NCBI GenBank assembly: GCA_963840335.1 | Contig: CAWIYP010000003.1 | Coordinates: 4,760 to 68,759, forward strand | Direction of reading: 5' to 3' | Origin: an uncultured Chloroflexia bacterium | GTDB lineage: Bacteria > Chloroflexota > Ktedonobacteria > Ktedonobacterales > JADMIN01 | DNA length: 64,000 nucleotides | Part shown: in pieces, positions 3,805 to 60,178 of the stretch | How positions within the stretch are numbered: the stretch's first letter is position 1 | Layout of the letters: each line of letters starts with the position of its first letter | Position numbers and translations under genes: made by a program | The notes under the pieces: model-generated | What the model was told of the DNA's origin: nothing | Database searches by the model: none | Seen by the model: only the letters and a program-made list of their open reading frames with translations

Positions 3805-4083
3805 TCAAAACGGCGCAATAAGGCTCAACTCCTTGCCTCGATACTGGCAGGCGGTTAGCTCCGCGGCACCCGCGGTACTGTCGCGAAAGGAAAGGACCAG
3901 CACCACAGTATAAAGCGCGAGGGCGGTGGCAGTGAGCAGAAGTACCAGCACATATGGGGCACGGAAGGGCAAGGGCCAGGCGTTCAGAAAGGTAGTTACC
4001 ATCGTCAGAGCGCCACTTGTGGCGACGAGCACTATTACGAGATTCTCCCGGCGTCTCTTGTGCCTTGGAGGTAACTGGCTCAT
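3805..4083 (-). CDS. Hypothetical small membrane protein (2 predicted TM helices)
   Basis: 92-aa ORF in a lower-GC stretch. Hydrophobic segments LVIVLVATSGALTMVTTFL and YVLVLLLTATALALYTVVLVL. Weak RBS (GAGTGAGG). No homology recognised. Confidence 0.4.
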   Translation of the reverse strand: MSQLPPRHKRRRENLVIVLVATSGALTMVTTFLNAWPLPFRAPYVLVLLLTATALALYTVVLVLSFRDSTAGAAELTACQYRGKELSLIAPF

Positions 4084-4140
4084 GGACGTGCCTCACTCTC
4101 GTGCAACGGACTGAGCGCCATATTACAGCATTTGGTGGAG

Positions 4141-4394
4141 GTAACTATTCAGGAGGGGCCCAAAATCGAGACAGCGGGCAGTGTGACACAGCATAGCGCT
4201 CTAGCAGCGGCAATACCCTTGTATTCCGGGCTTTTGCTCTCTGCCGCACATCGCTGATTATGCTGTATTCGGCGCCGATATGCCCTGTGATGGGTGCTTG
4301 CGTTCGTCCCGCCCGAACCGCCAGCGTCGCACAAACGCCTATTTCATGGGACTTGGCGCCAAATTCCACCCCAGGTTCGCCTCTGAATAGTTAC
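4141..4394. mobile_element. MITE-like non-autonomous element (254 bp) with terminal inverted repeats and an 8-bp target-site duplication
   Basis: Left end GTAACTATTCAGGAGG (4141-4156). The reverse complement of the right end (4380-4394) is GTAACTATTCAGAGG: 12 perfect bases, then one indel. The identical direct repeat TGGTGGAG flanks it at 4133-4140 and 4395-4402. No transposase is present. Confidence 0.7.
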
Positions 4395-4707: not shown

Positions 4708-5286
4708 ATGCCTACACGCATCATTCTCGCCGAGGACGACTCGGTGATTCGTATGGATTTGCGCGAAGAGTTGCAGCGCCAGGGCTACCTGGTCGTGGGC
4801 GATGTTGGCGATGGGCAGAGCGCCATCAATCTCGCGCGTGAGTTACACCCTGACCTCGTCATTATGGATATCCGCATGCCGGTGCTGGATGGCATCGAGG
4901 CGGCGCGTGCGCTCACCAGCGAGCGCCTCGCCCCGGTCATGCTGATCACTGGCTTCAGCGACAACGAGTTGATCGAGCGCGCCCGCGAGGCTGGCGTGGT
5001 GAGCTACATCACCAAGCCGTTCCGCGACAGTGACATCAAGCCCGCCATCGAGATCGCCATCGCCCGCTTCCAGGAGTTCCGTGAGATAGAAGCGCAGGTC
5101 AAGACCCTGGAAGAGCAGCTTGCCACGCGCAAGGTGGTCGAGAAGGCCAAAGGCATGCTGATGGAGAAGTACAAGCTCAGCGAGAATGACGCCTTCAAGC
5201 GCATTCAACGGCTCAGCATGAACAACCGCAAGACCATGCGCGAGGTCGCTGAGGCCCTGCTCCTGGCCGAAGAGGCCAATCAATAG
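4708..5286 (+). CDS. Response regulator with receiver domain and ANTAR RNA-binding output domain (PdtaR/AmiR-NasR type antiterminator)
   Basis: The receiver domain has ILAEDDSVIRMDL, DLVIMDIRMP and YITKPF. The C-terminal ANTAR region reads LATRKVVEKAKGMLMEKYKLSENDAFKRIQRLSMNNRKTMREVAEAL. Confidence 0.92.
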   Translation: MPTRIILAEDDSVIRMDLREELQRQGYLVVGDVGDGQSAINLARELHPDLVIMDIRMPVLDGIEAARALTSERLAPVMLITGFSDNELIERAREAGVVSYITKPFRDSDIKPAIEIAIARFQEFREIEAQVKTLEEQLATRKVVEKAKGMLMEKYKLSENDAFKRIQRLSMNNRKTMREVAEALLLAEEANQ

Positions 5287-18205: not shown

Positions 18206-20428
18206 GTGAGCCATATCACCTGCCCACTCTGCGAGGCGACCTGCGGGCTGACGATAACGACGGTCGGGCGCGAGGTGCGCTCCATTCGTGGCGATGAGGA
18301 AGATGTCTTCAGCCACGGCTACCTCTGCCCCAAGGCCGCCGCGCTCAAGGCGCTGGACGCCGACCCCGACCGCCTGCGCGCGCCGATGGTGCGCCAGGGC
18401 GAGGTCTGGCGCGAGGTAAGCTGGGACGAGGCCTGGGAGGAGGTGGAGCGGCTGCTCGCCGCCGTCATCGCCGACTATGAGCGCGACGCGGTGGCTATCT
18501 ATCTCGGCAACCCCAACGTCCACAACCTCTCTGGCCAACTCTATAATTCGCCGCTGATTCGCGCGCTGCGCAGCCGCAACATCTACTCCGCCTCGACGCT
18601 CGACCAGATGCCGAAGCACATCTCCTCCGGCCTGATGTTTGGCGGCCCGCTCACCATCCCCATCCCTGACGTGGATCGCTGCGACTACCTGCTCATCCTG
18701 GGGGCAAATCCGCTTGTCTCGAATGGCAGCCTGCTCACGGCGCCGAACATGCGCGACCGCCTGCGGGCGTTGCGGGCGCGCGGCGGGCGCATCGTCGTGG
18801 TGGATCCGCGCCGCACACGCACCGCGCAGGAGGCCGACACCCACCACTTCATCCAGCCGGGGACCGATGCGCTGCTACTCTTCGCGCTGATCCAGACGCT
18901 CTTTGCCGAGGGGCTGACGCGCCCCGACCGCCTTGCCGAGCATCTGAACGGGCTGGAGGAGCTGCGCGCCGCCGCCGCGCCGTTCACTCCGGAGGCTGTG
19001 GCGCCCGCCTGCCGCATCAGCGCCGAGGCGATCCGGACGCTGGCGCGCGAGCTGGCCGCCGCGCCACATCCCGCCGTCTACAGCCGCATAGGCGCCTGCG
19101 CGCAGGAGTTCGGGACGCTGACGAGCTGGCTGGTGGATGCGCTGAACACGCTGCTTGGCGCGCTCGACCACGAAGGTGGCGTGATGTTCCCGAAGGCCGC
19201 GGCGGGCGCGCGCAACACCAGCGGCGCTCCGGGGCGTGGACGCGGGATGCGGCTGGGACGCGCGCGGAGCCGGGTGCGTGGCGCGCCGGAAGTTCTGGGC
19301 GAGTTCCCCACCGCCTGCCTGGCGGAGGAGATGGACACGCCAGGCGAGGGCCAGATACGCGCGCTCATCACCATCGCGGGCAACCCTGTCATCAGCGCGC
19401 CGAACAGCGACCGGCTGGCGGCGGCGCTGGCTGGGCTGGAGGCGATGATCTGCGTAGACGCCTACCTCAACGAGACGACACGCCACGCGCACGTCATCCT
19501 GCCGCCACCATCGCCGCTAGAGCGCAGCCACTACGACCTGGCGTTCTACCAGCTCTCCACCCGCAACATCGCGCACTACTCGCTGCCCGTCTTCGCCCGC
19601 GCGCCCGGCCAGCCCGACGAATGGGAGATCCTGCTGCGGCTGATGGGCGCCGTCGCGGGGCGCTACCGCGAGACGCCCATCGCCGCGCTGGATGAGGCGG
19701 TCGCGCGACAGCTCATCGCGGCGGAGGCGCACACAGCGGGGTCGCCGGTCGCTGGGCGCGATGTGGAGGAGCTGCTAGCGGCGCTGGAGCCTCGGCGTGG
19801 GCCAGAGCGCCTGCTCGACTTCATGCTGCGCGTCGGCCCGTACGGCGATGGCTTCGGCGCGCGTCCCGGCGGCCTGACGCTGGCGACGCTGGAGCGCGAG
19901 CCCCATGGCGTAGACCTCGGCGCGCTCCAGCCACGCATCCCGGAGGTTCTGCGCACGCCATCGGGCAAGATCGAGCTGGCGCCAGAGCCACTGCTGGCCG
20001 ACATTCCACGGCTACGGGCGGCGCTGGAGCGTCCTCGGCCAGAGCTGCTGCTGATCGGGCGGCGTGAGTTGCGCTCGAACAACTCGTGGATGGCCAACCT
20101 GGAGCCGCTGGTGAAGGGCGGCGACCCCTGCGCGCTGCTGGTGAGCGAGGCTGACGCCGCGCGGCTGGGGCTGGCCGACGGTGGGCAGGCGCGCGTCACC
20201 TCCGCCGTCGCCTCGCTGGTGGCGCCTGTCCGCGTGACGGATGAGATGGCGCCCGGCGTCGTGAGTCTGCCGCATGGCTGGGGCCACGACCAGCCCGGCG
20301 CGCGGCTGCGGGTGGCGCGCGAGCATGCTGGCGTTAACCTCAACCGCCTCATCCCCGATGCGGCTATCGAGCCGCTCTCCGGCGACGCCTTGCTGAATAG
20401 TACGCCAGTGACGGTCGAGCCGGCCTGA
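18206..20428 (+). CDS. Molybdopterin (bis-MGD) oxidoreductase family protein, substrate unknown
   Basis: N-terminal Cys cluster CPLCEATCG...CPK. Molybdopterin-binding regions (LLILGANPLVSNG, ITIAGNPVIS). C-terminal beta-barrel (ARVTSAVASLVAPVRVTDEMAPGVVSLPHGWGH). Confidence 0.85.
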   Translation: MSHITCPLCEATCGLTITTVGREVRSIRGDEEDVFSHGYLCPKAAALKALDADPDRLRAPMVRQGEVWREVSWDEAWEEVERLLAAVIADYERDAVAIYLGNPNVHNLSGQLYNSPLIRALRSRNIYSASTLDQMPKHISSGLMFGGPLTIPIPDVDRCDYLLILGANPLVSNGSLLTAPNMRDRLRALRARGGRIVVVDPRRTRTAQEADTHHFIQPGTDALLLFALIQTLFAEGLTRPDRLAEHLNGLEELRAAAAPFTPEAVAPACRISAEAIRTLARELAAAPHPAVYSRIGACAQEFGTLTSWLVDALNTLLGALDHEGGVMFPKAAAGARNTSGAPGRGRGMRLGRARSRVRGAPEVLGEFPTACLAEEMDTPGEGQIRALITIAGNPVISAPNSDRLAAALAGLEAMICVDAYLNETTRHAHVILPPPSPLERSHYDLAFYQLSTRNIAHYSLPVFARAPGQPDEWEILLRLMGAVAGRYRETPIAALDEAVARQLIAAEAHTAGSPVAGRDVEELLAALEPRRGPERLLDFMLRVGPYGDGFGARPGGLTLATLEREPHGVDLGALQPRIPEVLRTPSGKIELAPEPLLADIPRLRAALERPRPELLLIGRRELRSNNSWMANLEPLVKGGDPCALLVSEADAARLGLADGGQARVTSAVASLVAPVRVTDEMAPGVVSLPHGWGHDQPGARLRVAREHAGVNLNRLIPDAAIEPLSGDALLNSTPVTVEPA

Positions 20429-26787: not shown

Positions 26788-27224
26788 GGGGGCGGCTGAT
26801 GAAGTTTTAGAAAATAGGACGAGCATTTCGCCGTAGCAAGCTGGCGAATACATTCGCGCCTGGATGGCCTGCGGGCCGCGAAGCCCGCCTTCGCGGGCTG
26901 GGTCTCGGCGAACATGGTAGCGGATGAGCAGGCGGATCGTCTGGCGTCGCCTGGTTCTTAGTCCGCGTCGGCGGACTTTGCGGCGGAACGCCATCCAGGC
27001 GCGGTTTCAACCGCCAGCCGCCCCGCGCGGCGCTCGCGTTCATTTCTAAAACATCATAAGCCGCGGCTAGGGGCGTGCGCGCCACGAAGCCTGCCTGCGC
27101 AGGCTGGGTTTCCGGCAGCGCATCGAGTGTCTGGCGGTGTCACAGCGACTGCGAAGGCGGAACCCAGGCCGCGCAGGCGGCCTTTGTGGCGCGCACGCCC
27201 CTAGCCGCGGCTTCAGCCGCCCCC
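26788..27224. repeat. Compound palindromic repeat cluster: an A-type inverted pair with a B-type inverted-pair element nested in its left arm
   Basis: GGGGGCGGCTGA (26788-26799) plus AGCCGCGGCTAGGGG (27059-27073) together equal the reverse complement of the intact right arm 27197-27224. The 259-bp insert at 26800-27058 has 13/14-matching ends TGAAGTTTTAGAAA / TGATGTTTTAGAAA (reverse complement). Confidence 0.8.
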
Positions 27225-27608: not shown

Positions 27609-27837
27609 GTCGCTCCTCCTGACGTTCGCCGCCGCCAGCTTGCTCTTTTGGTAGCACCTCGCCGATAGCGTAGCTTCTCACAGCCTTCTCCGCATGCTAT
27701 CACACCGCGACGCCCCCGTGCGAACAGGCCAATTCACGGCCCCAGCGCTGGCTTGCGCGCCAACTTGGCCCTTGCCCCGCCCCATCTCCCGACGTACCAT
27801 AGGCTACGAATAGCCTGCGCGGCGCGCTGTCGCGGGG

Positions 27838-30047
27838 GTGAGCCAGGGGAGAGCGCCGATGTCCGCCACACCGCCAGACATGAATGGAGCGCAGAGAGCC
27901 ACGGGAGCGATTCGCGTCGTGCGCGGGGCCTGTCCGCACGATTGCCCCGACACCTGCGCCACCATCACCACTGTTCAGGATGGCCGCGCCATCAGCTTCG
28001 GCGCCGCCAGCGACCACCCCATCACCCAGGGCTGGCTCTGCGCCAAGGTGCGCCCGTACCTGGAGCGTGTCTACCATCCCGACCGCCTGCCATACCGCTG
28101 CGGCGTGTCGGCCCCAAGGGCGGCGAACCGCAGTGGCGGCGCATTAGTTGGGATGAGGCGATTGGCGAGATCACCGACCGCTGGAAGACGATCATCGCGG
28201 AGTATGGCGCGGCGGCCATCCTGCCCTACTCGTATAGCGGCACGCTGGGGCTGCTCCAGCTTGGCGTCTGCGATGAGCGGCTCTGGAATCGCATGGGCGC
28301 GAGCGGACTGAACAGCGAGGCCATCTGCGGGGCCGCCGCCGAGCGCGCGGTGACGGCGACGCTGGGCGACCGCTGGGGCATCGACATGCGCGACTTCGTT
28401 CACAGCAAGCTCATCATCATCTGGGGGAATAATCCCGCCAGCACTGGCCCGCACCTGATGCCCTTCCTGCGCGAGGCGCAGCGGCGCGGCGCGTATGTCG
28501 TCGTGGTAGACGCCCGCCGCACACTCACCGCGAAGTCCGCCGATGAGTTCATCCAGCCGCTGCCCGCCACCGACGCCGCGCTGGCCCTTGGTCTGATGCA
28601 GGTCATCTTCGCCGAGGGGCTGCACGACGAGGCCTGGCTCGAAGCGCACAGTGTCGGCTGGCGCGACCTCCGCGACCGCGCGGCGAGCTATCCGCCGGAG
28701 CGGGTGGCCGCCATCACCGGCGTCGCGGCGGAGACGATCATCGCGCTGGCCCGCCGCATCGGCGCCTCGAGCCCCACCCTGCTGAAGTTCGCCGATGGGG
28801 TGCAGCGCCACGGCAACGGCGGCCAGACGGCCCGCGCGCTCGCCTGCCTCAGCGCCATCACCGGACAGATCGGCCTGCGTGGCGGCGGGCTATCCTACAG
28901 CACGAGCGGCTACATCCACTGGGACGAAGAGGCGCTGGGGCATGCCAGCGACTCGCCGCCGGAGCCGCGCATCGTCAATATCAACCGCCTGGGCGCGGCG
29001 CTCGCGGGCGAGGTGGCCGACCCGCCCATCATGTCGCTCTACGTCTACTGCGCCAATCCCGCCGCCTCCACGCCCAACACGCGGCGTGTGCTCGAAGGGC
29101 TGCGCCGCGACGACCTCTTCACCGTCGTCCATGACCTCTTCCTGACGGATAGCGCGCGTGAGGCCGACATCGTTCTACCCGCCACCAGCCAGCTAGAGCA
29201 TGTGGATCTGCACAAAGCCTATGGGCAGACGTTCCTCACCTACAATGCGCCCGCCATCGCGCCACTGGGCGAGGCCAAGAGCAACTGGGATGTCATGCGT
29301 CTGCTGGCCGCCGGGATGGGCTACGATGAGCCGTGGCTGCGGCAGGAGGCCGATGAGGTGATCGCGGAAGTGTTGGACGCCACCCGCGCGACCAACCCGC
29401 TGCTGGCGGGGATTACGCTGGAGCGGCTGAAGGCGGAGGGCGCTATTCCGCTGGCCTTCGCGCCGGGACAGGAAGTTCCCTTCGCCGACCTGCGCTTCCC
29501 GACGCCTTCGGGCAAGGTGGAGTTACGCAGCGAGCGCATGGCCGCCGAGGGGCTGGATCCGCTGCCCGACTACACGCCGCCCGCCGAGTACGCGGGCTGG
29601 GCCGAGCGGCGTGCGGCGGGCGAGGATGACCGCCTGGCGCTGATCTCCGGCGCGGCGCACCACTTCGTCTCCAGCAGCCTGGCGAACCTGCCCAGTCTGC
29701 TCAAGCGCGAGGGTGAGCCGTTCATCGAGCTGCACCCAGAGGATGCAGAGGCGCGTGGCATTGCTGATGGCGACCTCGTTGAGGTGAGCAATGCGCGTGG
29801 GTCGTGCCAGCTTCGCGCCCGGCTGACGACGACGGCGCAGCGCGGGGTCGCTGTCTCGCCCAAGGGCCACTGGCCCGGCCTCACCGCTGATGGCCGCAAC
29901 ATCAACTGGACGACCTCTGACGAACTGGGCGACATTGCCGGACAGAGCACATTCCACAGCAACCTCGTGCGGGTACGGCCCGTCGCGCCTGGCGACGCGG
30001 AGAAATCCACCGCAACCGTTGGCGCGGCTCCGGTGTTTCACCCCTAG
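27838..30047 (+). CDS. Molybdopterin oxidoreductase family protein with N-terminal 4Fe-4S motif; one frameshift as sequenced
   Basis: N-terminal ~85 aa (CPHDCPDTCA...GWLCAKVRPYLERVYHPDRLPY) are in the frame of ORF 27838-28311. The rest (PLRRVGPKGGEPQWRRISWDEA onward) is in ORF 27753-30047. The junction is one missing base in the C run at ~28093-28097. Confidence 0.8.
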
Positions 30048-43800: not shown

Positions 43801-44085
43801 GGTTGAATCGAAGCGGGGCGGGCAGCGTATCGCCGCTCGGCTGGCGAATAAATTCGCGCCTGGATGGCCTGCGCGCCACGAAGTGCCGCCTTCGCGCACT
43901 GGGTTTTCGACGGCGCTGGAATGCGCAGGGCAAGCGATACTGCTCGCTACGCGCACAACGGGTACGGGAATGACCCAGTCCGCGGCGGCGGACTTCGTGG
44001 CCCGCACGCCCTTAGCCGCGGGTTTACCCGCCCCTGCTCCCGCGCGCCGTATCCGCATCAATTCGTTAAATCGCTTCAACCGTCG
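43801..44085. repeat. Composite palindromic repeat (B-type arm + loop + A-type arm, reverse orientation)
   Basis: B arm is at 43840-43912 (TTCGCGCCTGGATGGCCTGCGCGCCACGAAG...). A arm is at 43974-44081. The A arm's reverse complement is ~90% identical to 57670-57768. Confidence 0.8.
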
Positions 44086-44092
44086 GCACGCT

Positions 44093-45076
44093 TCAGCCTT
44101 TCAGCAGTTGGCTCAGTGGCACGATGGTGTAGCCGCGCTGCTCCAGTTCGGCGATAATGACCGGGAGCGCCTCCGCTTCGTGCGCGCTATTGACGTGCAT
44201 CAGGATGATCGCCCCTGGCCGCAGGTTGGGGCTGCTGAGGATGCTGTTTTCGATGTCCTGGGCGGTATTCGCGGAATCCCAGTCGCGGGGATCGATGCTC
44301 CAGAGAATCGTCCGGTAGCCCAGTTTCGCCGCGAGCGCGCGCACCTGCGTGTTGTAGTTGCCGCCGTATGGCCGGAAGTATGGGCGTGTCGTTCGCCCCG
44401 TGATGCCTGCGATGACGCGGTCGGCCTGCGTCAACTCGTTGCAAATATAGCTATCTGAACGCGGGGGCGAGGTCAGATCCGTGTGGTCCATCGTGTGATT
44501 GCCGATGTCGTCTCCTCGCTTGAGCATCCGCTGGACCAGGCTGAGGTTCGCTTGCGCGAAATACCCTGTCAGGAACCAGGTCGTGCGGATACCGTACTCG
44601 TCCAGGGTGTTGAGGTAGCTCGTGGCATTGCCCGCGCTGCCACCATCCGAATCGAAGGTCAGGCTCACCTGGCGTTTGCTCGTCGAGACGGAACCGATGA
44701 CGCTGGATGACACCGGCTGAACGCCTGGCGCGGGGACGCACGCCGAGGATGGCGGCGCCGTGGGGCGCGGGGTCGGGCGGGGCGTCGCGGTGGGACGTGG
44801 CGTCGGCCTGGGTGTCGCCGTCGGGCGCGGTGTCGCCGTCGGGCGCGGTGTCGCCGTCGGGCGCGGTGTCGCCGTCGGGCGCGGTGTCGCCGTCGGCGCA
44901 AGCGTCGGCGTCGGGGTCGGCGTCGCCGTGGCGGTTGGCGTGGCGGTGGCCTGCGGTGTGGGTGTGGGGCTGAGCGCCGTTGTCGTGGCGCCGCAGCCGG
45001 AGAGCAGCAGGAGCGTGATCGCAAGGAAGAGAAAAATGCCGCTGAGACGCTGGTTCAACCGATGTGCCTGAGACAT
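44093..45076 (-). CDS. Polysaccharide deacetylase (NodB/CE4) lipoprotein with a Pro/Thr/Ala/Arg repeat linker
   Basis: Lipobox LLSGC. NodB motifs TFDSDGG and GNHTMDH, plus RPYGG. RBS GAAGGA upstream. Confidence 0.88.
   Translation of the reverse strand: MSQAHRLNQRLSGIFLFLAITLLLLSGCGATTTALSPTPTPQATATPTATATPTPTPTLAPTATPRPTATPRPTATPRPTATPRPTATPRPTPRPTATPRPTPRPTAPPSSACVPAPGVQPVSSSVIGSVSTSKRQVSLTFDSDGGSAGNATSYLNTLDEYGIRTTWFLTGYFAQANLSLVQRMLKRGDDIGNHTMDHTDLTSPPRSDSYICNELTQADRVIAGITGRTTRPYFRPYGGNYNTQVRALAAKLGYRTILWSIDPRDWDSANTAQDIENSILSSPNLRPGAIILMHVNSAHEAEALPVIIAELEQRGYTIVPLSQLLKG
44812..44900. repeat. Perfect 18-nt tandem repeat (about 4.9 copies) inside the deacetylase linker
   Basis: GTGTCGCCGTCGGGCGCG repeats at 44812, 44830, 44848 and 44866, with a partial copy at 44884. 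It encodes the (PTATPR)n tract. Degenerate copies lie upstream. Confidence 0.9.
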
Positions 45077-46453: not shown

Positions 46454-46848
46454 GCGCTGGGGGTGTCGCGGATCGTCGCTTCGATCAACGCGCAGAGTCG
46501 GGTAGCATCCTGGAGGTCTACCGGACTAAAGCTAGCGTACACGTCACGCGAGCCCTGGGCGGCGGCCAGCGCATCACGGAGCAGGCGCAGGCGCTCGGCG
46601 GGTGTTGTGGCGTCGGCGGCCATGTCGCGGTAGAGCAGCGCAATGTTGAATTGGGTCATCGCCCAGTCGGCGGGGGCGGCCTCGCGGGTGCGGACGGTCA
46701 GCGCCGCGCGGTAGGCCTCCACGGCCTCGGCGAGCAGCCGCGCGCGCCTGCCCCTCGGCCAGCCCCGCCTGGTCGCTCAGCGCGACGGCCAGGTTGTTCT
46801 GGGTCATCGCCCAGTCGGCGGGGGCGGCCTCGCGGGTGCGGACGGTGC
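46450..46848 (-). pseudogene. 3' fragment of a TPR-repeat protein gene (no N-terminus, internal frameshift)
   Basis: Repeat units read ...TVRTREAAPADWAMTQ(N/F)N(L/I)A... Two perfect 47-nt copies sit at 46652-46698 and 46790-46836. The frame changes at ~46728-46740 in a (GC)n run. Homology ends abruptly near 46848. Confidence 0.65.
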
Positions 46849-57512: not shown

Positions 57513-57669
57513 TGCCTGGTCGCTCCCTTCTCGCCTCGCGCGGGTCGCGTCATCGCGCCGCGTTGTGGGCATTCTATCAGATGCGGGCCAGCCCGCGAGA
57601 GATGCTATACTGCAACTTGGCTGGCGAGTAATGGTATTGAACGATTGCGAGGCGGCTGGCAGTTGATGC

Positions 57670-57855
57670 GGTTGAACGAATTGATGGGGATACGGCGCGC
57701 GGGAGCCGAGGCGGGTAAAGCCGCGGCTAAGGGCGTGCGCGCCACGAAGCCCGCCGACGCGGGCCGGGTCCTGGCGTTCGATTTTTAGTCTGCGCAGGCG
57801 GACTTCGCGGCGGAACGCCCTCCAGGCGCGGCTTGAGCCGCCAGCCGTCCCCCAG
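57670..57855. repeat. Composite palindromic repeat (A-type arm + short loop + B-type arm)
   Basis: A arm is at 57670-57768 (GGTTGAACGAATTGATGGGGATACGGCGCGCGGGAGCCGAGGCGGGTAAAGCCGCGGCTAAGGGCGTGCGCGCCACGAAGCCCGCC...). B arm is at 57786-57855, in reverse orientation. Confidence 0.8.
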
Positions 57856-57920
57856 CCACGCTCCCATCACTCGCCCGCCACTGAAGCTATCCTCATCTCA
57901 CTATTGGCAGGGCGCGCTCA

Positions 57921-59867
57921 ATGAGTCTCATCGGTGTCGCGGGGCATGTGGATCACGGCAAGTCGACGCTCGTCATGGCGCTGACGGGCATTGACCCTGA
58001 CCGACTCGCCGAGGAAAAGGCGCGTGGCATGACCATCGACCTCGGCTTCGCGTGGCTCACGCTCCCCGGCGGGCGCGAGGTCAGCGTGGTGGATGTGCCG
58101 GGCCATGAGGCCTTCATCAAGAACATGCTCGCGGGCGTCGGCAGCCTGGATGCCGCGCTGCTGGTCATCGCCGCCGATGAGGGCGTGATGCCGCAGACGG
58201 CGGAGCATCTGGCCATCCTCGATCTGCTGCGCGTGGGCAGCGGCGTCGTCGCGCTGAACAAGGCTGATCTGGTCGAGCCGGACTGGCTGGAGCTGGTGCG
58301 CGCGGAGGTCGAGGAGGTGTTGGCGCCGACCACGCTGGCGGGCGCGCCGATCATTCCCTGCTCCGCTGTGACGGGCGCCGGGCTGCCGGAACTGCTGGCC
58401 GCGCTCGCCGCTGCGCTGGAGCATGCCCCCGCGCGCCGCGACCTGGGGCGTCCGCGTCTGAGCGTGGATCGCGTCTTCACCATCACCGGCTTCGGCGTGG
58501 TCGTCACGGGCGCGCTACAGGATGGCGCGCTGGCCGTGGGGCAGGAGGTCGAGCTGCTGCCCTCGCAGCGCCGCGCGCGCATTCGCGGCCTCCAGACGCA
58601 CAAGCGCAAGATCGAGCGCGGCGAGCCGGGCGCGCGGCTGGCGGTGAATCTCGCTGGCGTGGAGAAGAGCGACCTCGCGCGCGGCGACATCCTCTCGCTG
58701 CCGGGGCGGCTGCGGACGACGCAGACCATCGATGTGCGGCTGGAGACGCTGGCCAGCGCGGCGCGTCCCATCGCGCACAATGCCATGCTCGACCTCTATC
58801 TGGGCGCCGCCGAGACCCAGGCCCGCGTCATCCTGCTGGACACCGAGGCGCTGGCGCCGGGCGCGTCCGGCTGGGCGCAGTTGCGGCTAGCGCGGCCCTT
58901 CGTCGCGGCGCGGGGCGACCGCTTCATCCTGCGGACGCCTTCGCCGAGCGAGACGGTTGGCGGTGGGGTGGTGGTCGAGCCAGCCGCGCGGCGGAGGCGC
59001 CGCTTCGATCCCGCGACCATCGCCCGGCTGGAGTTGCTGGCGCGCGGCGATCCGGCGGACGTGACGCTGACGGCGCTGCGAGGCGAGCGCCGCGCGACCA
59101 CGGCGAAGGCTCAGCGCGCCGAGAGCTTCGCTGGGCGCGCCGAGGCTGACCTGCCGCAGGCGACAGGGTTGCCAGCGGAGGATGTGGCCGACGCGCTGGC
59201 CGAGCTAGCGACACGCGAGCAGGCGCGACGCATCGGCGCGCAGTGGTACGCTACCAGCGAATGGCAGCGGCTGCGCACGGCGAGCGACACCGCGTTGGCG
59301 ACCTATCATGCGCGCTATCCGCTGCGCCCCGGCATGCCGCGCGAGGAGTGGCGCGCACGGCTGGGCATTCCCCCGCGCGAGGCGGCGGAGGTGGTGGCGG
59401 CGCTGGCGGCGGAGGGCGCGCTGGCCGAGGCGAGTGTCGCGGGGGCTGGCGGCGAGCGTCGCGGCTGGCTGCGGTCGCCAGAGCATCGCGCTGAGCCGAC
59501 GCCAGCGCAACGGGCGACGGTGGATGCCCTGCTGGCCCGCTTCGCCGCCGCGCCCTTCGCGCCGCCCACACGCGCGGAGGTGGAGGCCGAGCTGGGGCCA
59601 GAGCTGACGCAGGCGCTGCTCGACCGTGGCGAACTGGTACGGGTCAGCGAGAGCATCGTCCTGACCCCCGCCGCGTTGGCCGAGGCGACCCGGCGCATCG
59701 TCGCGCATCTGCGCGCCCATGAGACGATCACCGTGGCCGAGGCGCGCGACCTGCTCGACACAACGCGCAAGTATATGCTCGCCATCTTCGAGTATCTCGA
59801 CGAACAGCGCATCACCGAGCGGCGTGGCGACGACCGCGCGCTGGGTAGCGCGGCGGTGGGTGGATGA
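57921..59867 (+). CDS. selB: Selenocysteine-specific translation elongation factor
   Basis: G domain motifs GHVDHGKSTL, DVPGHE and LNKADL. EF-Tu-like domains II and III. C-terminal winged-helix repeats (ITVAEARDLLDTTRKYMLAIFEYLDEQRIT). Confidence 0.92.
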   Translation: MSLIGVAGHVDHGKSTLVMALTGIDPDRLAEEKARGMTIDLGFAWLTLPGGREVSVVDVPGHEAFIKNMLAGVGSLDAALLVIAADEGVMPQTAEHLAILDLLRVGSGVVALNKADLVEPDWLELVRAEVEEVLAPTTLAGAPIIPCSAVTGAGLPELLAALAAALEHAPARRDLGRPRLSVDRVFTITGFGVVVTGALQDGALAVGQEVELLPSQRRARIRGLQTHKRKIERGEPGARLAVNLAGVEKSDLARGDILSLPGRLRTTQTIDVRLETLASAARPIAHNAMLDLYLGAAETQARVILLDTEALAPGASGWAQLRLARPFVAARGDRFILRTPSPSETVGGGVVVEPAARRRRRFDPATIARLELLARGDPADVTLTALRGERRATTAKAQRAESFAGRAEADLPQATGLPAEDVADALAELATREQARRIGAQWYATSEWQRLRTASDTALATYHARYPLRPGMPREEWRARLGIPPREAAEVVAALAAEGALAEASVAGAGGERRGWLRSPEHRAEPTPAQRATVDALLARFAAAPFAPPTRAEVEAELGPELTQALLDRGELVRVSESIVLTPAALAEATRRIVAHLRAHETITVAEARDLLDTTRKYMLAIFEYLDEQRITERRGDDRALGSAAVGG

Positions 59868-59910
59868 GGGGTGAAGGACAGGCAGCAGCGTCGCGTATCG
59901 GCGAGGCGTA

Positions 59911-60178
59911 GGGGCGGGTAAACCCGCGTCTAAGGGCGTGCGCGCCACGAAGCCCGCCTGCGCGGGCTGGGCCTTGGCGAGTATTAGCGCGCAGACGCAT
60001 GCGGTTTGTCTTGCGCCACTTGGCTGCTTGGTCGTCTGTGTGAATGAGCGCTCCGACACCGTGAAGACCTGACGCAGAACGACCCTCGTCCAATGTAAGG
60101 CGCCGGTCCGCCGGAACCCAGGCCGCGTCGGCGGCCTTCGTGGCGCGCACGCCCTTAGCCGCGGGTTTACCCGCCCCC
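59911..60178. mobile_element. MITE-like A-type element: ~63-nt terminal inverted repeats around a 141-nt core
   Basis: 59911-59973 reads GGGGCGGGTAAACCCGCGTCTAAGGGCGTGCGCGCCACGAAGCCCGCCTGCGCGGGCTGGGCC. It is nearly identical to the reverse complement of 60115-60178. The element fills most of the gap between selB and the kinase gene. Confidence 0.75.

Follow-up and report, generated by a model that had tools for sequence, protein, structure and literature searches.

Repeat units in the window

The window (the whole 64-kb stretch of DNA that was analysed, ~66% G+C) contains the gene for the selenocysteine elongation factor SelB (57921-59867) and ten intergenic repeat units of ~64 nt. An earlier note on this DNA had described one repeat family, with long, palindromic and GC-rich copies in intergenic DNA at four loci. 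This description was confirmed: the four loci were read directly, and all of them carry units where the note had placed them. A gapless repeat search recovered the family as well as its inverted arrangement. When the ten proposed units were aligned in one orientation, a common core of ~64 nt emerged. A profile search built from the units returned these ten (E 1e-14 to 1e-17) and nothing further in the window. The core pattern GCCRCGAAGNCCGCCNNCGCGGNCTGGG, which spans 28 nt, matches the window eight times with up to three mismatches, compared to 0.01 matches expected from shuffled sequences. The similarity covers the whole ~64-nt unit and is not confined to a short GC-rich core, an outcome that the earlier note had considered. 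According to the coordinates from a covariance model (R1, see below), the ten units (u1 to u10) form five pairs, and each pair is arranged head-in, a forward unit being followed by a reverse one. There are two subtypes, A and B, and the assignment of subtypes within the window pairs agrees with the claim that pairs may combine them.

The first locus carries two elements. In the first of these, u1 (26840-26904, forward, subtype B; 80.4 bits with R1, also found by nhmmer) has the three hairpins GCGAA-TACA-TTCGC (H1), GGCC-TGCG-GGCC (H2) and AGCCCGC-CTTC-GCGGGCT (H3). It faces u2 (26955-27018, reverse, subtype B; 62.6 bits) across a 50-nt spacer. A further inverted repeat of 22 nt lies outside u1 and u2 (26792-26813 and 27043-27064, 91%), and the outer limits of this element were set at 26792-27064 by blastn of the flanks against the window and by reading of the sequence. 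The second element begins with u3 (27047-27110, forward, subtype A; 66.2 bits), which according to its fold has lost the 5' half of H1. It faces u4 (27161-27224, reverse, subtype A; 81.2 bits), with arms of 53 nt that are 91% complementary (inverted repeat I7).

At the second locus, u5 (43840-43905, forward, subtype B; 62.8 bits) has a one-base bulge in H3. Its partner u6 (reverse, subtype A; 76 bits) consists of a core (43972-44035) and a 5' extension of ~50 nt, so that it covers 43972-44087 in total. This extension is common only to u6 and to u7 of the third locus (forward, subtype A; 70.4 bits; core 57707-57770, with extension 57655-57770), and the two form inverted repeat I1. The "A consensus" of ~105-116 nt, which had been proposed as the shared unit, was not upheld, as similarity over this length (116 nt, 87%) is restricted to 43972-44087 and 57655-57770. 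Across an 11-nt spacer, u7 faces u8 (57782-57845, reverse, subtype B; 57.6 bits), in which H3 and the tail are decayed, as judged from the fold. Both u7 (57707-57770) and u8 have stem mismatches.

The fourth locus is the element that had been flagged. It has u9 as its left arm (59910-59973, forward, subtype A; 83 bits), u10 as its right arm (60115-60178, reverse, subtype A; 80.5 bits) and a 141-nt spacer in between (59974-60114). The terminal inverted repeats, which had been put at ~63 nt and near-perfect, are present, but the arms (59911-59971 and 60117-60177, inverted repeat I4) span 61 nt at 92% complementarity and are separated by 145 nt. The potential to form a long hairpin was also confirmed: as single-stranded DNA, the element folds into one hairpin (-104.5 kcal/mol, z = -9.6). 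Spacers in the window (~10-140 nt) are longer than the ~16 nt that is usual in other genomes. By blastn, neither the window spacers nor the 5' extensions are similar to loci with a Y1 transposase gene (see below) or to other genomes, so that the spacers are not recognisable gene remnants. The 141-nt spacer is, in addition, dissimilar to the other spacers and loci and to the Y1 genes themselves.

All ten units are intergenic according to GC3-based gene calls, which agrees with the statement that they do not overlap credible genes. Some ORF peptides had been attributed to the repeats, and GGCGTGCGCGCCACGAAG indeed translates to GVRATK. Three of the four loci are located between convergent genes, each gene being followed by a forward unit. 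Searches for tRNA and tmRNA genes in the window were negative, and no Rfam family was found in it at the gathering score. The best permissive Rfam match of the flagged element, CRISPR-DR28 (H3 and its flanks, 59946-59969; 29 bits, gathering score 35), was rejected as a chance likeness between GC-rich hairpins because there is neither an array nor a regular spacing.

Three further repeats in the window concern coding regions. The ORF at 44093-45076 (reverse strand), which has a polysaccharide deacetylase domain, includes eight tandem copies of an 18-nt sequence similar to CGTCGGGCGCGGTGTCGC (44753-44926), and its protein would contain a hexapeptide-repeat stretch. A 59-nt direct repeat (46640-46698 and 46788-46846, 92% identical, 148 nt apart) is found among overlapping long ORFs. 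The ORFs at 18206-20428 and 27753-30047 have a stretch of 78 nt in common (18760-18837 and 28466-28543, 73%), which suggests that they are paralogues.

Structure of the unit and its occurrence in other genomes

The unit consists of three small hairpins (H1, H2 and H3), which are joined by conserved linkers. H1 has the core stem GCGGN with a TGAA or TAAA loop and is followed by a nearly invariant CT. H2 has a stem of variable length, often GGCC-TGCG-GGCC, and is connected by the linker (A/G)CGAAG to H3. The latter is a 7-bp stem with a CNNC loop (AGNCCGC-CNNC-GCGGNCT), after which the unit ends with a GGG tail (the CTGGG motif). The structure was fixed by hand on a seed of 48 sequences, from which the covariance model R1 was built. 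Covariation was evaluated in an alignment of the 150 best R1 matches, taken from the window and 99 other loci. Standard pairs are formed in 98.3% of 2376 cells, and two-sided changes occur in 13 of the 16 pairs (287 cells). None of 500 shuffles reached these values of pairing and covariation, and pairing dropped to 25-55% when the partner column was slid. This alignment was fitted to R1, which favours the structure, and the compensatory pair types are also plain in an unfitted MAFFT alignment (UA/CG/GC 71/60/13 in H3; UA/CG/GC/AU 70/43/25/8 in H1). The hairpins are conserved through compensatory change. RNAalifold, when applied to the MAFFT alignment, found H3 alone, since H1 and H2 are shifted in register there. 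Single units do not fold with better energies than shuffles (z +0.3 to -2.8); the support for the hairpins is thus comparative, not thermodynamic.

Among units that are linked to a transposase gene (see below), those from lower-GC lineages have an A-rich linker in place of H2, so that H1 and H3 are the conserved modules. The units in the window do not have a GT[AG]G head; instead, H1 is followed by CTAA, CTAG or CTGG. The sequence CTAC, which is the reverse complement of GTAG, follows H1 in 8 of the 150 genomic units and in 23 of 124 gene-linked units. Both the CT that is conserved after H1 and CTAC, where it occurs, are leads on a candidate recognition or cut site.

The earlier note had considered that the four loci might be the only copies, with none in relatives. 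This is not the case, as copies are abundant in relatives. When species-representative genomes were scanned, at least 115 stretches matched the exact 28-nt pattern, and all but two of these come from MAGs that are labelled Thermomicrobiales, Ktedonobacterales, Ktedonobacteria, Chloroflexia or Chloroflexi. The two exceptions among the matches listed are one Frankia locus and one Longimicrobium locus. The Longimicrobium MAG has two good R1 matches (L113, 1536-1592 and 6593-6651; 40 and 47 bits), while Frankia sp. QA3 has a single weak one (L093, 4672-4749; 27 bits). The unit family, or a look-alike, may occur in phyla beyond Chloroflexota.

With a profile made from the fitted alignment, 246 units were found in the window and the 115 loci among the matches listed. 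Where neighbouring units in the listed loci are less than 350 nt apart, 72 of 80 cases are convergent, two are divergent and six are tandem, the median gap being 16.5 nt. The claim that units always occur as facing inverted pairs holds in the window (five of five pairs), but not elsewhere, since 81 of the ~225 scorable units in the listed loci are solo. In one well-assembled MAG, the doublets are ~135 nt long, and their two arms are distinct subtypes which differ in the H1-H2 linker, the length of H2, the sequence of H3 and the tail. Sequence conservation throughout a phylum is unusual for selfish repeats, and the units may have a host function as well.

A comparison of close strains was possible around the selB gene, a homologue of which (95% identity of SelB) is present on three short contigs from other samples (L122-L124). 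Upstream of selB, the flanks are 94-97% identical, and a block of ~250 nt that comprises u7, u8 and their extensions is missing from these contigs (57621-57868 in the window, with approximate boundaries; alignment A7). The block is replaced by ~18 unrelated bases, so that it does not represent a clean insertion. No target duplication is visible at the junctions examined, where the ends of the element are not defined to the base. Downstream of selB, the three contigs end inside a B-subtype unit ~88 nt past the stop codon; the window has an A/A doublet which begins 44 nt past the stop codon. The absence of the block upstream and the different unit downstream indicate that elements are gained, lost or replaced between close strains. 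In relatives with 81-83% identity of SelB, synteny is not conserved downstream of selB, so that an empty-site comparison is uninformative there.

Two further observations were made at these loci. In one of the more distant relatives (L125, 83% identity of SelB), two adjacent ORFs upstream of selB (1179-2318) have the domains HTH_OrfB_IS605 and Cas12f1-like_TNB. This pair looks like a split TnpB-like gene, and the window has a REPIN on the corresponding side of selB. In each of the three contigs from the close strains, which come from independent short-read assemblies, the end falls within a unit (L122, 4378-4401; L123, 2180-2203; L124, 2161-2184), from which we conclude that the repeats break assemblies of Chloroflexota.

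A Y1 transposase gene between inverted units

An iterated search of the six-frame ORFs did not reveal a Y1 transposase gene in the window, consistent with the earlier statement that neither a RAYT nor another transposase is encoded there. Such a result is expected if the gene is present in one copy, and it does not inform on the genome outside the window. Relatives therefore provide the link to an enzyme: in them, a linked IS200-like transposase, proposed earlier as something to look for, was found. A RAYT probe returned one borderline ORF (E 0.05) at locus L110, which proved to encode a Y1_Tnp protein (Pfam PF01797, E 7.7e-20). As the probe caught this gene only at the borderline, it is too divergent to be useful. 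Upon an iterated search of the six-frame ORFs from the window and the 115 listed loci, a second Y1 gene was detected at locus L037. Both genes are located between inverted units: the forward unit lies upstream of the start codon (by 22 nt in L037 and ~70 nt in L110), and the reverse unit is found at the stop codon or just past it. In L037, an extra forward unit completes a full doublet downstream of the gene. The same layout (forward unit, gene, reverse unit) occurs in four more homologues, which were fetched by protein identity and come from a 3.0-Mb contig, a 1.0-Mb contig, a Thermomicrobiales MAG and a Ktedonobacterales MAG. There are thus six independent genomic loci with a unit-bracketed Y1 gene (L037, L110, L116, L118, L119 and L120).

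The vicinity of the Y1 gene in L037 contains additional short repeats. Upstream of the gene (4080-4360), the 16-nt unit GCCCGGCGGCGGCATC, which corresponds to the H1 module and neighbouring bases, is present in tandem at least six times. Downstream (4865-4960), a unit of ~33 nt with GCGGGTTTACCCGCC occurs three times.

The association was followed in 80 metagenomic loci, the contigs of which were scanned with an alignment of 30 sequences, units being called by R1. It depends on the similarity of the encoded protein. Units are present at all 15 loci with a protein identity of at least 50%, 14 of which have a forward unit within 200 nt upstream and 11 a reverse unit downstream. They are present at 22 of 27 loci with 43-49% identity (37 of 42 for all loci with at least 43%), at 4 of 16 with 38-42% and at 1 of 22 with 37% or less. 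At the metagenomic loci, the distance to the gene is 6-150 nt for the forward unit, which lies upstream, and 12-148 nt for the reverse unit, which lies downstream. The two units which flank one Y1 gene are near-identical, and units differ between lineages. Five of the metagenomic loci (L134, L136, L138, L140 and L153) have 7-11 units around the Y1 gene with a regular spacing of ~100 nt; these arrays resemble BIME-type clusters, and some positions in them were called on both strands.

Concerning the class of the enzyme, the two Y1 proteins score 58-60 bits with the NCBIfam model for IS200 (cut-off 55) and 17-21 bits with that for RayT (cut-off 80). Among solved structures, the transposases of IS608 and ISDra2 and archaeal IS200 transposases come closest (E ~1e-13); the REP-associated enzyme from E. 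coli was not matched at E <= 0.01. In 120 homologues with a median length of 147 aa, the motif DH[VI]H is found in 111 and WQG in 116, and YIxxQ[RK]xHH is dominant. TnpA-Y1 subclass 1.2 is characterised by DH[IV]H, WQ and YIKNQKEHH, by a length of 148 aa and by a mean of 1.7 copies per genome (Quentin et al. 2018, PMC6006769). Judged by these model scores, motifs and length, the predicted enzyme is IS200-like and matches this subclass, and it is not a canonical RAYT. Subclass 1.2 was found mostly in Cyanobacteria and Bacteroidetes, is low-copy and not IS-like, has no typical terminal structures and is listed with "REP: no" (PMC6006769). In a separate study, a group of IS200 proteins was described which behaves like RAYTs, having no duplicates and abundant flanking 16-mers (Bertels et al. 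2017, PMC5581495).

Interpretation and comparison with known systems

We consider it probable that the four loci represent five elements of the REPIN/BIME type and that their unit family belongs to a REPtron system, a link that is seen in relatives. As part of this same explanation, these extragenic elements, each of which consists of two inverted, REP-like units of ~64 nt, would be non-autonomous. The earlier note had set the repeats apart from REP/BIME families. This distinction did not survive, as the repeats are extragenic and multi-copy, form inverted doublets of two subtypes and have the layout of a REPtron in relatives.

According to the proposed mechanism, a Y1 HUH endonuclease/transposase would be encoded elsewhere in such genomes by a low-copy gene between two inverted units, and the genome from which the window derives presumably still encodes this enzyme. 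The most likely course, by analogy, is the one which is established for TnpA from IS200/IS605 and has been proposed for TnpA-REP from E. coli: the enzyme would bind the hairpins where the DNA is single-stranded, as at a replication fork, cleave next to them and religate the ends. Doublets of units might thus be copied or moved into other intergenic sites. Mobilisation, catalysis, the hairpin that is recognised and the position of the cut are inferred, and the absence of the block 57621-57868 from close strains bears on mobilisation only indirectly. What was observed comprises the anatomy of the unit, its covariation, abundance and inverted pairing, the linkage to a Y1 gene and the difference in element content between close strains.

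A rather unlikely alternative is an ordinary, multi-copy insertion sequence (IS) of the IS200 family that is accompanied by MITEs. A Y1 gene between terminal inverted units is IS-like, and an internal deletion of the unit-gene-unit arrangement would leave a doublet. The scores with the IS200 model and the proximity to the TnpA proteins of IS608 and ISDra2 among solved structures would fit as well. However, IS200/IS605 elements end in asymmetric hairpins that lie on the same strand and do not form inverted repeats (background in PMC6006769). The copy numbers also argue against this alternative: only two Y1 genes compared to 246 units were found in ~870 kb of sampled sequence from the loci listed, and the 684 homologues of the L037 protein form clusters that are nearly all restricted to one contig each; duplicated copies of the gene were not seen in either set. 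The YIxxQxxHH motif and the median of 147 aa fit a subclass described as low-copy and not IS-like (PMC6006769), and the window spacers lack similarity to Y1 genes.

Less probable still is a structured RNA, in which case the unit would stabilise 3' UTRs, terminate transcription or act as a small RNA, and the pairs would result from convergent genes with one unit each. Such a role would account for the location of three window loci between convergent genes and for the strong covariation in three stems, and an influence on the 3' ends of mRNAs is known for classical REPs (PMC3733652). The idea of a 3'-UTR element or terminator was, however, not borne out in other genomes. There, doublets occur in 28 co-directional, 10 convergent and 8 divergent intergenic regions, roughly in background proportions (based on crude home-made gene calls), so that the convergent setting in the window is not a rule. 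With the same crude gene calls, solo units in co-directional regions are sense in 25 and antisense in 16 cases, without a clear strand bias. G.T pairs are not commoner in the stems than A.C pairs (11 and 19, respectively), an observation that disfavours selection on a single transcribed strand of RNA. At the window loci, H3 is not followed by a run of T, and Rfam matches at the gathering score are lacking. An RNA function would also not explain why a gene for a DNA transposase is so tightly linked. A secondary effect at the RNA level is compatible with the main explanation.

It is highly improbable that the units are DNA sites which the host maintains by selection and not by transposition, for the nucleoid, a topoisomerase or another chromosomal protein: conservation of the unit sequence extends over several orders and includes loops and linkers, and E. 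coli BIMEs bind host proteins (PMC2817692), but presence/absence and subtype turnover is seen between strains with 95% identity of SelB, several window copies are decayed, the systematic bracketing of a Y1 gene points to a transposase, and no candidate host protein was identified.

The foremost case of a domesticated transposase coexisting with a repeat population of its own is provided by REP/REPIN-RAYT systems, knowledge of which, as far as we are aware, derives almost entirely from Proteobacteria. The assignment to a REPtron system would extend such systems to Chloroflexota. It would provide a likely substrate for a Y1 subclass, with a modular unit of two or three hairpins compared to the single hairpin of classical REPs, and it bears on the question of whether IS200 gave rise to REP association a single time or repeatedly. 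On the practical side, the units create spurious ORFs and break short-read assemblies, and the covariance model would improve the annotation of Chloroflexota MAGs. Only GTAG repeats were mentioned for Chloroflexota by Di Nocera (2013), and our search of openly accessible literature returned no description of REPIN/RAYT systems in this phylum.

Several known systems can be compared. ERIC and Correia elements are likewise imperfect, intergenic palindromes (100-300 bp) that are conserved across genera. They are, however, devoid of modular, covarying hairpin units and of a Y1 link, and a target-site duplication was not seen for the elements described here. IS200/IS605 elements (IS608, ISDra2) have the closest enzyme by sequence and among solved structures and share the chemistry of hairpins in single-stranded DNA. 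In contrast to their asymmetric one-strand ends, multiple copies and frequent tnpB gene, the ends here are inverted, the gene looks low-copy and there is no adjacent tnpB. The REPtron-like loci of TnpA-Y1 class 3 (Solibacter usitatus, with ~600 atypical structures), which were described as intermediate between IS and REPtron, are similar in their IS200-like Y motif and in the atypical hairpins that flank the gene and are highly repeated in the genome (PMC6006769). They differ by the motifs NHVH and Y----Q, by a CnGA foot and by their occurrence in other phyla.

The TnpA-Y1 proteins of subclass 1.2 agree in their motifs (DH[IV]H, WQ and Y---Q--HH), in a length of ~148 aa and apparently in a low copy number. 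The subclass is reported with "REP: no" and from Cyanobacteria and Bacteroidetes, whereas the genes described here are bracketed by hairpin units which are also dispersed in the genome. We put forward, with somewhat less than even confidence, that subclass 1.2 enzymes partner a multi-hairpin REP/REPIN class of their own across Chloroflexota and related uncultured lineages. This would be a REPtron that originated or persisted on the IS200 side of the family tree, separate from the canonical RAYTs, and its units, having been maintained over a long time by compensatory change, may also serve the host.

The closest parallel are the REP/BIME/REPIN-RAYT REPtrons from E. coli and Pseudomonas fluorescens. 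There are differences. The unit (55-70 nt, two or three hairpins) is two to three times longer than a classical REP, which has one hairpin of 20-40 nt. The window units have no GT[AG]G head, while a GT[AG]G or CGTC foot would be expected. The enzyme is IS200-like and of class 1 (Y...Q..HH), RAYTs being of class 2 (YIxxNP), and the host belongs to Chloroflexota. As the layout agrees, but not the GT[AG]G head, the RAYT clade and the unit size, the family is not a member of the classical REPs. Both have extragenic hairpin units that are rich in GC, occur in many copies and mostly form inverted doublets of two subtypes; in both, a Y1 HUH gene lies between inverted units and is, at the loci sampled here, far outnumbered by the doublets. 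The doublets with distinct arms in the well-assembled MAG recall the Y and Z REPs of E. coli BIMEs (PMC6006769).
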